This document shows, one piece after another, positions 59,011-64,000 of a DNA stretch of 64,000 nt; within the stretch, counting starts at the first letter, position 1; every line of letters begins with the position of its first letter. Made by a program: the position numbers. The stretch lies in NCBI RefSeq assembly GCF_057098645.1, contig NZ_JBXSPU010000002.1. One strand, given 5' to 3'. Origin of the DNA: a plasmid.

Positions 59011-62000
59011 TTATAACATTTCGTACGGTTGGAAAAATGTTACTAAATGCCCGTCAGGCAGGGAGGCCGATATGCCCGTTGACTTTCTGACCACTGAGCA
59101 GACTGAAAGCTATGGCAGATTCACCGGTGAACCGGATGAGCTTCAGCTGGCACGATATTTTCACCTTGATGAAGCAGACAAGGAATTTATCGGAAAAAGC
59201 AGAGGTGATCACAACCGTCTGGGCATTGCCCTGCAAATTGGATGTGTCCGTTTTCTGGGCACCTTCCTCACCGATATGAATCATATTCCTTCCGGCGTCC
59301 GGCATTTTACCGCCAGACAGCTCGGGATTCGTGATATCACCGTTCTTGCAGAATACGGTCAGAGGGAAAATACCCGCCGTGAGCATGCAGCGCTGATACG
59401 TCAGCACTATCAGTATCGTGAATTTGCCTGGCCCTGGACATTTCGCCTTACCCGTCTTTTATATACCCGGAGCTGGATAAGCAACGAACGTCCTGGCCTG
59501 CTTTTCGATCTGGCGACAGGGTGGCTTATGCAACATCGTATTACTGAGATTCTACGTCAGTACTTTATAAGGCACTGTTGCAAATAGTCGGTGGTGATAA
59601 ACTTATCATCCCCTTTTGCTGATGGAGCTGCACATGAACCCATTCAAAGGCCGGCATTTTCAGCGTGACATCATTCTGTGGGCCGTACGCTGGTACTGCA
59701 AATACGGCATCAGTTACCGTGAGCTGCAGGAGATGCTGGCTGAACGCGGAGTGAATGTCGATCACTCCACGATTTACCGCTGGGTTCAGCGTTATGCGCC
59801 TGAAATGGAAAAACGGCTGCGCTGGTACTGGCGTAACCCTTCCGATCTTTGCCCGTGGCACATGGATGAAACCTACGTGAAGGTCAATGGCCGCTGGGCG
59901 TATCTGTACCGGGCCGTCGACAGCCGGGGCCGCACTGTCGATTTTTATCTCTCCTCCCGTCGTAACAGCAAAGCTGCATACCGGTTTCTGGGTAAAATCC
60001 TCAACAACGTGAAGAAGTGGCAGATCCCGCGATTCATCAACACGGATAAAGCGCCCGCCTATGGTCGCGCGCTTGCTCTGCTCAAACGCGAAGGCCGGTG
60101 CCCGTCTGACGTTGAACACCGACAGATTAAGTACCGGAACAACGTGATTGAATGCGATCATGGCAAACTGAAACGGATAATCAACGCCACGCTGGGATTT
60201 AAATCCATGAAGACGGCTTACGCCACCATCAAAGGTATTGAGGTGATGCGTGCACTACGCAAAGGCCAGGCCTCAGCATTTTATTATGGTGATCCCCTGG
60301 GCGAAATGCGCCTGGTAAGCAGAGTTTTTGAAATGTAAGGCCTTTGAATAAGACAAAAGGCTGCCTCATCGCTAACTTTGCAACAGTGCCAGCTGGACCG
60401 CCTCGGTCGTGATCTTCGTCATCTCATTAATACAGTGCACGACCTGACCGCGAGGGGGACCGGTCTGAAAGTGCTGACCGGTCACGGGGCGACTATCGAC
60501 ACAACAACGGCCGCTGGCAAGCTTGTCTTCGGTATCTTTGCCGCACTGGCGGAGTTTGAGCGCGAACTGATTGCTGAAAGAACGACTGCAGGTCTGGCAT
60601 CAGCAAGAGCCCGTGGGCGGAACGGCGGCCGACCTTATAAAATGACGCCAGTCAAACTGCGACTGGCAATGGCATCAATGGGACAATCAGAAACAAAGGT
60701 CAGTACGCTATGCCAGGAACTTGGGATAACCCGGCAAACTTTGTACAGGCATATTTCCCCTGTTGGTCAACTGCGGGCGGACGGGATCAAGCTGTTCAAC
60801 CGTGGATAATTTGAACGGACGGAAAAATCTGGGGTTCCGGCGTAGTACCCCTATCACCTCCACATTTTTGCAACAGTGCCTTATAAATGGCAGCCTTATG
60901 TTTACTTGCCAAGATGGGCTACCATATGATGTTTTATACTGAGCAATATTAATATTATCTTTAATGGAAAAATTAAGCCCACTAAGTGACCCACTGCTAT
61001 ATGGCTCTATTGTGAAGACGCCTGAGGGTAAAAATTTATACATGGTTGTCCCTATGTCTATTATTGCAAGGTTGACAATATTATTCGTTTTATAAATTTG
61101 AGCGTTTAAAATCACACATCAAAGCAATTAGTCAGGATAAACAACAATACCCAGTGCTTCGAGAATCAGTTCTTGCTGCCAGGCTGCAATTTTGATACCT
61201 GATGTATCGACTTTGCGGGGATCTAAACCGTCGAGTTCGGCGTGGCATAAATTGGCACCCTGTAGGCTAAATTGCCCCCAGACATCTTCGGAAAAAACAC
61301 CTCGACTTAAGTCTGACTCTTTCAGTGATGCACCCGCTAGGTTCGTTCCTATCCAGCGATTTTCAAACAACTCACATTTTTCTAAACAAACCCTCTCCAT
61401 ATTGGCATAGGAAAGATTACATCCAGAAATAAATGCTGAGCAAAAGTACATACGATTACTCACTTGATGGGCAAAGTTTGTTCGGGAAAAGTTGGCACCT
61501 TTTAAATCACACGCACGGAACTCTATACCGTAGCAATTGGCATTACTGAAGTTTGCCATCGCAAGTTGGCATTGTTGGAAACTTGCATCACGAAGATCTG
61601 CGACATCAAAGTGGCAGCCTTCGATATCACCCTGTTCAATGAACTTGCAGTTGACGAATGTCGTATCACGCAAGTTAGCACGTCGAAAGTCGCTGCGAAT
61701 GAATGTGCAAGCGGTGAAGGTGAGATCACTTAAGTCTTTATGTGAAAAGTTGTGGTGCCGATATGTATGATTGTAGGTTTCCATGAGTACTCCTTGTTGA
61801 AAGGAGGGCTAGACTACCATTATACATATGCCAAGACATTAAAATAAAAGCCTGTTACATCAACACATTACAACCCCTCAATTTACCTGTTTTAAGTGGT
61901 CAAATTGGCGCGTAGAGCGCCTATCGCTCTTGCATTGGCACGCGGCCCTGTTGAAAAAAGTTATTCGCTTTAGATAGGGTTAGGAGAGCCGTGCTTCGCC

Positions 62001-64000
62001 GGTAAAAAATCGGACTATCCGACGCAGGGCGGACTCATCGGCGGAGAAGCAAACTTTGACTATATCTCCCTACACTTGGAAGAGGGCTAGACTGGCCCCA
62101 TAGATCACCAGACACTTCGACTCTCTTAAAATAAGAGGTAGTCTTGGAACTATGTTTAATACCAGTCAGAACGATAAGATGGTTGAAGTGTTATCAGGAC
62201 CTGAGCGGCGTCGGCGTCGTACACCGCAGGAAAAAATTGCCATTATTCAGCAGACTATGGAGCCCGGTATGACCGTGTCTCATGTCGCGCGCCTGCATGG
62301 CATCAATGCAAACCAGATATTCAAATGGCGCAAGCAAGGCACTGTTGCAAAGTTAGCGATGAGGCAGCCTTTTGTCTCATTCAAAGGCCTTACATTTCAA
62401 AAACTCTGCTTACCAGGCGCATTTCGCCCAGGGGATCACCATAATAAAATGCTGAGGCCTGGCCTTTGCGTAGTGCACGCATCACCTCAATACCTTTGAT
62501 GGTGGCGTAAGCCGTCTTCATGGATTTAAATCCCAGCGTGGCGCCGATTATCCGTTTCAGTTTGCCATGATCGCATTCAATCACGTTGTTCCGGTACTTA
62601 ATCTGTCGGTGTTCAACGTCAGACGGGCACCGGCCTTCGCGTTTGAGCAGAGCAAGCGCGCGACCATAGGCGGGCGCTTTATCCGTGTTGATGAATCGCG
62701 GGATCTGCCACTTCTTCACGTTGTTGAGGATTTTACCCAGAAACCGGTATGCAGCTTTGCTGTTACGACGGGAGGAGAGATAAAAATCGACAGTGCGGCC
62801 CCGGCTGTCGACGGCCCGGTACAGATACGCCCAGCGGCCATTGACCTTCACGTAGGTTTCATCCATGTGCCACGGGCAAAGATCGGAAGGGTTACGCCAG
62901 TACCAGCGCAGCCGTTTTTCCATTTCAGGCGCATAACGCTGAACCCAGCGGTAAATCGTGGAGTGATCGACATTCACTCCGCGTTCAGCCAGCATCTCCT
63001 GCAGCTCACGGTAACTGATGCCGTATTTGCAGTACCAGCGTACGGCCCACAGAATGATGTCACGCTGAAAATGCCGGCCTTTGAATGGGTTCATGTGCAG
63101 CTCCATCAGCAAAAGGGGATGATAAGTTTATCACCACCGACTATTTGCAACAGTGCCGAAACGACTGAGCAAAATGATCAGTGATCTACTCCCTCCGGTG
63201 GATTTAACGGAGTTGCTGCTCGAAATTAACGCCCATACCGGATTTGCTGATGAGTTTTTCCATGCTAGTGAAGCCAGTGCCAGAGTTGATGATCTGCCCG
63301 TCAGCATCAGCGCCGTGCTGATGGCTGAAGCCTGCAATATCGGTCTGGAACCACTGATCAGATCAAATGTTCCTGCACTGACCCGACACCGGCTGAACTG
63401 GACAAAAGCGAACTATCTGCGGGCTGAAACTATCACCAGCGCTAATGCCAGACTGGTTGATTTTCAGGCAACGCTGCCACTGGCACAGATATGGGGTGGA
63501 GGAGAAGTGGCATCTGCAGATGGAATGCGCTTTGTTACGCCAGTCAGAACAATCAATGCCGGACCGAACCGCAAATACTTTGGTAATAACAGAGGGATCA
63601 CCTGGTACAACTTTGTGTCCGATCAGTATTCCGGCTTTCATGGCATCGTTATACCGGGGACGCTGAGGGACTCTATCTTTGTGCTGGAAGGTCTTCTGGA
63701 ACAGGAGACCGGGCTGAATCCAACCGAAATTATGACCGATACAGCAGGTGCCAGCGAACTTGTCTTTGGCCTTTTCTGGCTGCTGGGATACCAGTTTTCT
63801 CCACGCCTGGCTGATGCCGGTGCTTCGGTTTTCTGGCGAATGGACCATGATGCCGACTATGGCGTGCTGAATGATATTGCCAGAGGGCAATCAGATCCCC
63901 GAAAAATAGTCCTTCAGTGGGACGAAATGATCCGGACCGCTGGCTCCCTGAAGCTGGGCAAAGTACAGGTTTCAGTGCTGGTCCGTTCATTGCTGAAAAG

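Follow-up and report, generated by a model that had tools for sequence, protein, structure and literature searches.

Two tnpA remnants of Tn2 around an IS26-bounded qnrS1 segment: a probable product of several recombination steps

Results

Organization of the region

The sequence analysed here (the window) is a 64,000-nucleotide stretch of plasmid contig NZ_JBXSPU010000002.1 (assembly GCF_057098645.1). In the window, two remnants of the Tn2 transposase gene tnpA, both on the plus strand and collinear, bracket an IS26-qnrS1-IS26 block (Table 1). The first remnant belongs to a longer piece of Tn2 (part A), which also holds res, and the second (part B) is cut by the end of the window. Elsewhere in the window there is no further Tn2 sequence, and tnpA nt 473–1703 in particular are absent. 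Beyond the window, in near-identical plasmids, part B runs on to the tnpA-side terminal inverted repeat (IR), next to which lie AGATA and a piece of mobX. In one of these, p13QT31-1, the IR occupies the extended coordinates 64456–64493.

Table 1. Features of the region, with coordinates in the window
Feature	Coordinates	Strand	Basis or remarks
IS26 copy 1, canonical sequence	56126–56945	+	IS26 family transposase WP_001067855.1 in p13QT31-1
IncX1-type backbone fragment (215 bp), adjoining the bla-side IR	56946–57160		100% to IncX1 plasmid pA127-X1
Tn2 part A	57161–59543	+	2383/2383 match to intact Tn2 (NZ_CP042579.1 and a second intact copy)
bla-side 38-bp IR (in part A)	57161–57198		38/38 against the reference
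blaTEM-1 (in part A)	57308–58168	-	Annotation
tnpR (in part A)	58351–58908	-	Annotation
tnpA nt 1–472 (157 codons + 1 nt)	59072–59543	+	Alignment to intact Tn2
Left-end remnant of ISEnca1 (IS1380 family), 27 bp	59544–59570	+	Identical junction in pSA20030575.1
IS26 copy 2, variant AA at nt 613–614 (Tnp26 G184N)	59571–60390	+	WP_001067858.1 in p13QT31-1
qnrS1 module, 1947 bp	60391–62337	-	100% to p10k 2502–4448, collinear with the native context there
Serine-recombinase gene, 3' part	60391–60809	+	
qnrS1	61128–61784	-	
IS3-family fragment	about 62088–62337		
IS26 copy 3, inverted, canonical + A780G	62338–63157	-	Sequence comparison
Tn2 part B, tnpA nt 1704–2546, cut by the window end	63158–64000	+	0 mismatches to NZ_CP042579.1

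The qnrS1 block is bounded at both of its present borders by IS26, as had been predicted. Copy 2 cuts the ISEnca1 remnant with its left end and a resolvase gene with its right end, while copy 3 adjoins the qnrS1 module with its right end and tnpA nt 1704 with its left end. The left end of copy 1 truncates the region downstream of intI1. The junction between copy 3 and the qnrS1-upstream side of the module is also found in an unrelated IncX3 plasmid.

Identity of the Tn2 fragments and breakpoints in tnpA

Both tnpA pieces are derived from Tn2. Intact copies from PLSDB, rather than the canonical Tn1, Tn2, and Tn3 records, served as references, and with these the 5' and 3' pieces have 0 mismatches to NZ_CP042579.1, 98–99 and 9–19 mismatches, respectively, to Tn3-like copies, and 61 and 14 to an R7K-type copy. 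The pieces are therefore closer to Tn2 than to Tn1- or Tn3-type copies. The perfect match on the tnpA side extends from 63158 through the end of the IR (extended coordinate 64493 in p13QT31-1), and this IR, like that on the bla side, agrees with the reference at 38 of 38 positions. The name Tn2 rests on papers in which segments of pOLA52 are labelled ΔTn2 (PMC5645526); these segments are 100% identical to NZ_CP042579.1.

Alignment of the two fragments to Tn2, as the original prediction had proposed, fixed the breakpoints at tnpA nt 472 and nt 1704. Its claim of two same-strand fragments of a Tn2 tnpA was borne out: a single reference fits both, and there is no sign in the nucleotide alignment of two different Tn3-family transposons. 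Its measurements need revision. The 5' fragment, said to run to about codon 166 and up to IS26 copy 2, ends at codon 157 and is followed by 27 bp of ISEnca1. The 3' fragment does resume after copy 3, but at nt 1704, with K569 (KRLSKMIS...) as the first complete codon, and not at about codon 640. The gap is thus nt 473–1703, or 1231 nt (~411 codons), instead of about 470 codons. Of the 1001 codons of intact tnpA, only nt 1–472 and nt 1704 to the end remain. The 5' piece spans positions 1–150 of the 165 in the Pfam domain DUF4158, and the 3' piece starts shortly ahead of DDE_Tnp_Tn3 (residues 586–975 of the intact protein).

What is left of the gene is a stub of 171 codons (157 of TnpA and 14 foreign) plus a promoterless piece with the DDE domain. 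With tnpA destroyed, the remnant is incapable of self-transposition. blaTEM-1, tnpR, res, and qnrS1 are intact, and further spread of blaTEM-1 and qnrS1 from here would proceed via IS26, not Tn2.

The ISEnca1 scar

The 27 bp between tnpA and IS26 copy 2, together with the Tn2 sequence upstream, are identical to a stretch of pSA20030575.1, where the continuation enters a gene annotated as an ISEnca1 family transposase (320 bits with the IS1380 transposase model NF033539). The window itself holds only the 27-bp scar, and its contiguity with a transposase gene is seen in pSA20030575.1. Two other sources of the 27 bp were considered. ISEcp1 was rejected, since it shares only 19 nt and its left end differs at 4 of the 27 positions; the qnrS1 region was likewise rejected, the 27 bp being absent in p10k and in an IncX3 qnrS1 plasmid. 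The 5' breakpoint in tnpA is due to ISEnca1 and not to IS26.

The IS26 copies

IS26 is 820 bp long, with 14-bp terminal IRs and one transposase gene. All three copies in Table 1 have this length and GGCACTGTTGCAAA ends, and the IS6 transposase model gives 278 bits. They differ pairwise at 1–3 positions (copies 2 and 3 at three), so that by sequence comparison they are non-identical or hybrid.

An intramolecular event of IS26 either deletes the adjacent sequence and leaves one IS, or yields two identical inverted IS with inverted 8-bp target repeats. When each of the six IS26 flanks was compared with every other, directly and as the reverse complement, no 8-bp match was found; copies 2 and 3 are, moreover, unlike each other. 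Neither product is therefore recognized here. The signature is seen in pSA20030575.1 (GTCAGGAT), which served as a positive control. A 16-nt extension of the inverted repeat formed by copies 1 and 3 was dismissed as a chance ungapped extension, their flanks not being complementary.

The outer ends of Tn2

The 5 bp flanking the two Tn2 ends are ATTAA on the left (the last 5 bp of the IncX1 fragment) and AGATA on the right, and so do not form a shared duplication. In contrast, intact duplications are found in pOLA52 (TATAA/TATAA) and pSA20030575.1 (TCAGA/TCAGA). The mate of the right junction, mobX-AGATA-IR, occurs in 13 other plasmids; neither this junction nor the left-hand mobX sequence was found in the window. 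For the left junction, the predicted mate (IR, ATTAA, and the IncX1 continuation CTCTCATGGTATCG...) was not found in PLSDB, and insertion of Tn2 into an IncX1 backbone is suggested by one junction. Since the ends lack a common 5-bp duplication and the right junction has its mate in other plasmids, the two halves appear to have been brought together by recombination from separate Tn2 insertion sites.

Occurrence of the junctions

Junctions were counted in PLSDB as records in which at least 80% of the query was covered. The junction of IS26 with tnpA nt 1704 occurs in at least 512 plasmids and that of the 27 bp with IS26 in 78 records; the whole 8 kb (56000–64000) occurs in 71. pOLA52 has, within one Tn2 flanked by TATAA, the order IS26, 3' part of ISEnca1, orf, bleO, tnpA nt 468–604, IS26, and tnpA nt 1704 to the end. 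In pSA20030575.1, tnpA(1–472)-ISEnca1(1425 bp)-IS26 lies at one place and IS26-tnpA(1704–end) at another, and the TCAGA-flanked Tn2 ends lie inside an IS26. The 8-bp duplication CAAGGAAG borders IS26 on the left in pSA20030575.1 and on the right in pOLA52.

Discussion

Assembly of the region

The arrangement is best read as two dead remnants of a lineage of Tn2::ISEnca1/IS26 derivatives, united in multiple steps by IS26- and homology-driven recombination (probability about 0.8). Six steps may be envisaged, of which the first three are documented by intermediates in other plasmids and the last three are inferred for the lineage from end states. A transposition unit of ~2.8 kb (ISEnca1-orf-ble) entered tnpA after nt 472, duplicating nt 468–472 (TATTA). 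The left end of an IS26 came to be placed at nt 1704, with loss of nt 605–1703, and a further IS26 inserted into ISEnca1 with the 8-bp duplication CAAGGAAG. In the fourth step, the IS26 adjacent to ISEnca1 would have reached a position that leaves 27 bp of the ISEnca1 left end, probably by adjacent deletion or by inserting anew and then recombining with another IS26. The 1947-bp qnrS1 segment may next have been swapped in between two inverted IS26 copies. Finally, the bla-side half, with its IncX1 backbone, and the tnpA-side half, with mobX, may have been joined by recombination in IS26 or Tn2.

The original prediction instead envisaged one intact Tn2 in this plasmid, in which one intramolecular IS26 event removed the central part of tnpA, with IS26-qnrS1-IS26 remaining in its place. 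Such an event would account for the 100% identity of both fragments to Tn2, for their collinear order on one strand, and for the IS26 that each borders today. It is nevertheless very improbable. It leaves unexplained the 27-bp ISEnca1 scar that separates tnpA from IS26, and it is at odds with the lack of 8-bp duplications, direct or inverted, and with two inverted IS26 copies of different sequence where an adjacent deletion leaves one IS. The nt-1704 junction is, furthermore, widespread, and in pOLA52 the adjoining IS26-flanked segment lacks qnrS1. The Tn2 ends, without a common 5-bp duplication, lie in different backbones.

A second alternative retains one physical copy of a pOLA52-like Tn2::ISEnca1/IS26 as the source of both tnpA fragments, the inner segment (ble to qnrS1) and the outer bla-side flank having been exchanged later, e.g. 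by recombination with a second Tn2 in blaTEM, tnpR, or res. Identical Tn2 sequence is unable to distinguish copies, and the joining crossover could possibly lie inside part A, for example in res, in which case the fragments would come from one physical copy. In pOLA52 and in pSA20030575.1, both junction types do lie in one Tn2 whose 5-bp duplication is intact, and the fragments in the window are collinear. This course, however, requires an additional crossover within part A; relatives with only the tnpA(3')-IS26 piece exist (PMC10248516), and the IS26 variants here differ from those at the pOLA52 junctions. It is considered unlikely, though less so than a single IS26 event.

A further, tentative suggestion, somewhat less likely than not, is that the tnpA-dead Tn2::ISEnca1/IS26 derivative may be mobile in its own right, and successfully so, with TnpA of other Tn3-family copies acting on it in trans; the window would then be a chimera of two of its insertions. 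The internal junctions of this derivative recur within Tn2 ends whose intact 5-bp duplications differ (TATAA, TCAGA, and TATTT), and for a fourth site (AGATA, in mobX) both IR junctions are recorded, in separate plasmids.

The region is of little importance beyond correct annotation. It does illustrate that a transposon gene found as collinear pieces around an IS26-bounded block was not necessarily split by one event in situ.

Comparison with known plasmids

This multidrug-resistance region is already known: 71 plasmids in the database contain it, and it has been described from IncHI1 plasmids with tet(X4). pT16R-1, pT28R-1, and p13QT31-1 match 56000–64000 at 100.0% identity over 100% of the length; p13QT31-1 has no mismatch, and no structural difference from the IncHI1 tet(X4) plasmid regions is seen. 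In PMC12115866, the region of pT16R-1 and pT28R-1 is listed as IS26-ΔTn3-blaTEM-1-tnp-IS26 plus IS26-qnrS1-IS26-ΔTn2, and in PMC10248516 relatives are described with tnpA-IS26 alone or with the qnrS1 and blaTEM blocks in addition. The available portions of both papers state neither where exactly the breakpoints lie nor that ISEnca1 left a scar, and do not report the mismatch of the Tn2 flanks.

Disruption of Tn2 tnpA near its 5' end by an IS1380-family element is shared with plasmids of the pC15-1a type (ISEcp1-blaCTX-M-15). In many plasmids, the ISEcp1 element in tnpA has subsequently been truncated by IS26. The element here is, however, ISEnca1, and its site is nt 472 as opposed to about nt 214 in pC15-1a, whose match to the query 57161–59543 stops at position 2125.

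A further likeness is to the ΔTn2-IS26-ble-orf-ΔISEnca1 block described in PMC5645526 and PMC7823714, which, in its pOLA52-type form with a terminal IS26, occurs in many IncHI2, IncX1, and IncP plasmids. The junction of IS26 with tnpA nt 1704 and the 3' Tn2 end are identical, and the ISEnca1 site in tnpA is the same, seen at nt 472 here and from the other side, at nt 468, in pOLA52. In contrast to that block, ble-orf, the 3' part of ISEnca1, and tnpA nt 468–604 are missing here, a qnrS1 segment lies between inverted IS26 copies of other variants, and ISEnca1 is shortened to 27 bp. The precise breakpoints and the 27-bp scar are useful lineage markers that link the IncHI1 tet(X4) region to the old pOLA52-type ΔTn2-IS26-ble-ΔISEnca1 block.

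Structure of the split tnpA region

The final 8 kb of the window contains three IS26 copies of 820 bp each, which separate two fragments of a Tn2 tnpA gene. The fragments are on the same strand, as originally predicted, but the proposed breakpoints were off. Alignment to a Tn2 reference, to which both pieces are 100% identical, places the end of the 5' piece at nt 472 (157 codons plus 1 nt), rather than at about codon 166 against IS26, and the resumption of the gene at nt 1704 (first full codon K569), rather than at about codon 640. Therefore, 1231 nt (about 411 codons) are missing instead of about 470 codons. 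Positions 59544-59570 do not match tnpA, and in translation the TnpA reading departs past ...LMQHRI. DUF4158 is found in the 5' stub, and the DDE_Tnp_Tn3 domain begins a few codons inside the 3' piece (Pfam).

Features of the terminal region and its left neighbourhood
Feature	Position	Strand	Remarks
IS1	about 52970-53670		further left of the integron remnant
Class 1 integron remnant	53840-56125		left of IS26 copy 1; aadA22-type cassette on - strand
intI1	54777-55790	+	within integron remnant
IS26 copy 1	56126-56945	+	left end interrupts the region past intI1
IncX1-type backbone fragment			215 bp, between IS26 copies 1 and 2
Tn2 part A (bla-side half)	57161-59543		2383/2383 identical to the intact Tn2-type transposon in pC16_001 (L006) and pCAVP367-77 (L008); includes 38-bp IR and res
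blaTEM-1	57308-58168	-	within Tn2 part A
tnpR	58351-58908	-	within Tn2 part A
tnpA 5' piece	59072-59543		ATG to nt 472; within Tn2 part A
ISEnca1 left-end scar	59544-59570		27 bp, CTGAGATTCTACGTCAGTACTTTATAA
IS26 copy 2	59571-60390	+
Serine recombinase gene			3' two-thirds, between IS26 copies 2 and 3
qnrS1	61128-61784	-	between IS26 copies 2 and 3
IS3-family fragment			between IS26 copies 2 and 3
IS26 copy 3	62338-63157	-
tnpA 3' piece	63158-64000	+	0 mismatches to the Tn2 reference of part A

The small plasmid p10k carries qnrS1 in a setting that is collinear with, and 100% identical to, the 1947-bp segment between IS26 copies 2 and 3. The tnpA 3' piece reaches the tnpA-side IR in p13QT31-1 (L001), a near-identical plasmid. 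Over the 17-kb overlap the window and p13QT31-1 differ at eight positions, all left of 56000 (47118-55598), three of them within 70 bp (50479, 50505, and 50548); the resistance block 56000-64000 is without differences. A RefSeq CDS of p13QT31-1 named 'tRNA modification GTPase' (17385-17990; extended window coordinates 64384-64989) covers the Tn2 IR and a fragment annotated in another record as mobilization protein MobX; the name of the CDS probably arose as an artefact, the reading frame being truncated and fused.

Origin of the breakpoints

A 19-nt core of the 27-bp scar is the left end of ISEcp1, a sequence that thousands of plasmids share; over its full length, however, the scar has four positions unlike ISEcp1, which was rejected as the source. 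The IncHI1 plasmid pSA20030575.1 has the same Tn2 sequence followed by the same 27 bp, which there lead into a gene with the annotation ISEnca1 family transposase (320 bits against the IS1380 model); an IS26 interrupts this ISEnca1 after 1425 bp. This continuity shows that an ISEnca1 insertion made the 5' breakpoint of tnpA and that IS26 copy 2 subsequently cut the element down to 27 bp.

pOLA52 retains the remaining half of that ISEnca1 insertion, together with an older state of the 3' junction, in the order IS26, ISEnca1 3' part, orf, bleO, tnpA nt 468-604, IS26 (inverted), tnpA nt 1704 to end, and IR. This order shows that insertion of the ISEnca1 unit, about 2.8 kb in length, created a duplication of tnpA nt 468-472 (TATTA), that the IS26 within ISEnca1 inserted in the normal way and generated an 8-bp duplication (CAAGGAAG, found left of IS26 in pSA20030575.1 and right of it in pOLA52), and that the junction of IS26 with nt 1704 existed with ble, not qnrS1, adjoining. 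The block ΔTn2-IS26-ble-orf-ΔISEnca1 has already been published (PMC5645526; PMC7823714).

In pOLA52 the whole nest lies within one Tn2 flanked by TATAA, and in pSA20030575.1 the two Tn2 halves are inverted and about 80 kb apart, with TCAGA beside both IRs, inside an IS26 interrupted at nt 535-539. The tnpA-dead Tn2::ISEnca1/IS26 derivative has intact 5-bp duplications at different sites (L016, pOLA52, 820-2108 and 41898-46400; L010 and L014, pSA20030575.1), and TATTT is reported for pHNEP124 (PMC7823714). These duplications suggest that the dead derivative moved with TnpA in trans, or that its internal part spread among Tn2 copies by recombination.

Assembly of the region

A single intramolecular IS26 event with adjacent deletion had been proposed, and this explanation is not upheld. 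An inverted IS26 pair bearing a flank and its reverse complement is the textbook signature of IS26 intramolecular inversion. It occurs in pSA20030575.1 with GTCAGGAT (L014, IS26 at 2833-3652 and 5231-6050), which served as a positive control; in the window, the flanks of the three IS26 copies, six in all, were compared in every pairing, both directly and in reverse complement, and none match. Copies 2 and 3 lie in opposite orientation and differ in sequence. Copy 1 has the canonical sequence, from which copy 3 departs by a private A780G. In copy 2, GG>AA at nt 613-614 (Tnp26 G184N) is found without 459A, which goes along with GG>AA in the copies of pOLA52 and pSA20030575.1. PMC9019673, citing Pong et al. 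2019, describes G184N as a more active (hyperactive) variant. In PLSDB, at a minimum query coverage of 80%, the IS26/nt 1704 junction occurs in at least 512 records, the 27 bp/IS26 junction in 78, and the whole 8 kb in 71. Moreover, the qnrS1/IS26 junction at copy 3 is common to IncX3 OXA-181-type plasmids, without Tn2 there. The patchwork copies point to homologous recombination between IS26 elements, and those of the window look like recombinants.

The two tnpA pieces, both 100% identical to one reference, are inseparable by sequence, but the flanks of the IRs differ. The left IR is flanked by ATTAA and IncX1 backbone, and the right IR by AGATA and the mobX fragment. The predicted right-junction partner, mobX-AGATA-IR, is absent from the window; 13 other plasmids (e.g., pPK8277-tetX) contain it with 150/150 identity, and there it runs into bla and an IS26. 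The predicted left-junction partner was not found in PLSDB. The Tn2 ends therefore derive from different insertion events, and the arrangement seen today is a recombinant. The crossover may have lain in IS26 copy 2, in copy 3, or within Tn2 part A. A plasmid-family survey (PMC10248516) lists some relatives with ...hp-tnpA-IS26 alone and others that add qnrS1, IS26, and tnpA-tnpR-blaTEM-1, which fits a stepwise assembly without giving its direction.

Functional implications and known occurrence

The tnpA gene is inactive, reduced to a 171-codon stub (59072-59584) whose stop falls within the end of IS26, and a 3' piece that lacks a promoter. The region retains intact blaTEM-1, tnpR/res, and qnrS1. 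From what is established about IS26, the blaTEM-1 segment could be released or moved as an IS26 translocatable unit by copies 1 and 2, which are in direct orientation, and inversion or co-mobilisation of qnrS1 could be brought about by the inverted pair of copies 2 and 3.

Dozens of IncHI1 tet(X4) plasmids with a size of about 190 kb contain the 8-kb region at 100.0% identity; among them are pT16R-1 and pT28R-1, whose resistance region is given in PMC12115866 as IS26-ΔTn3-blaTEM-1-tnp-IS26 followed by IS26-qnrS1-IS26-ΔTn2. Therefore, the split-tnpA region is an ordinary, already described mosaic, to which this analysis adds the precise breakpoints, the scar left by ISEnca1, and the lack of agreement between the Tn2 flanks.
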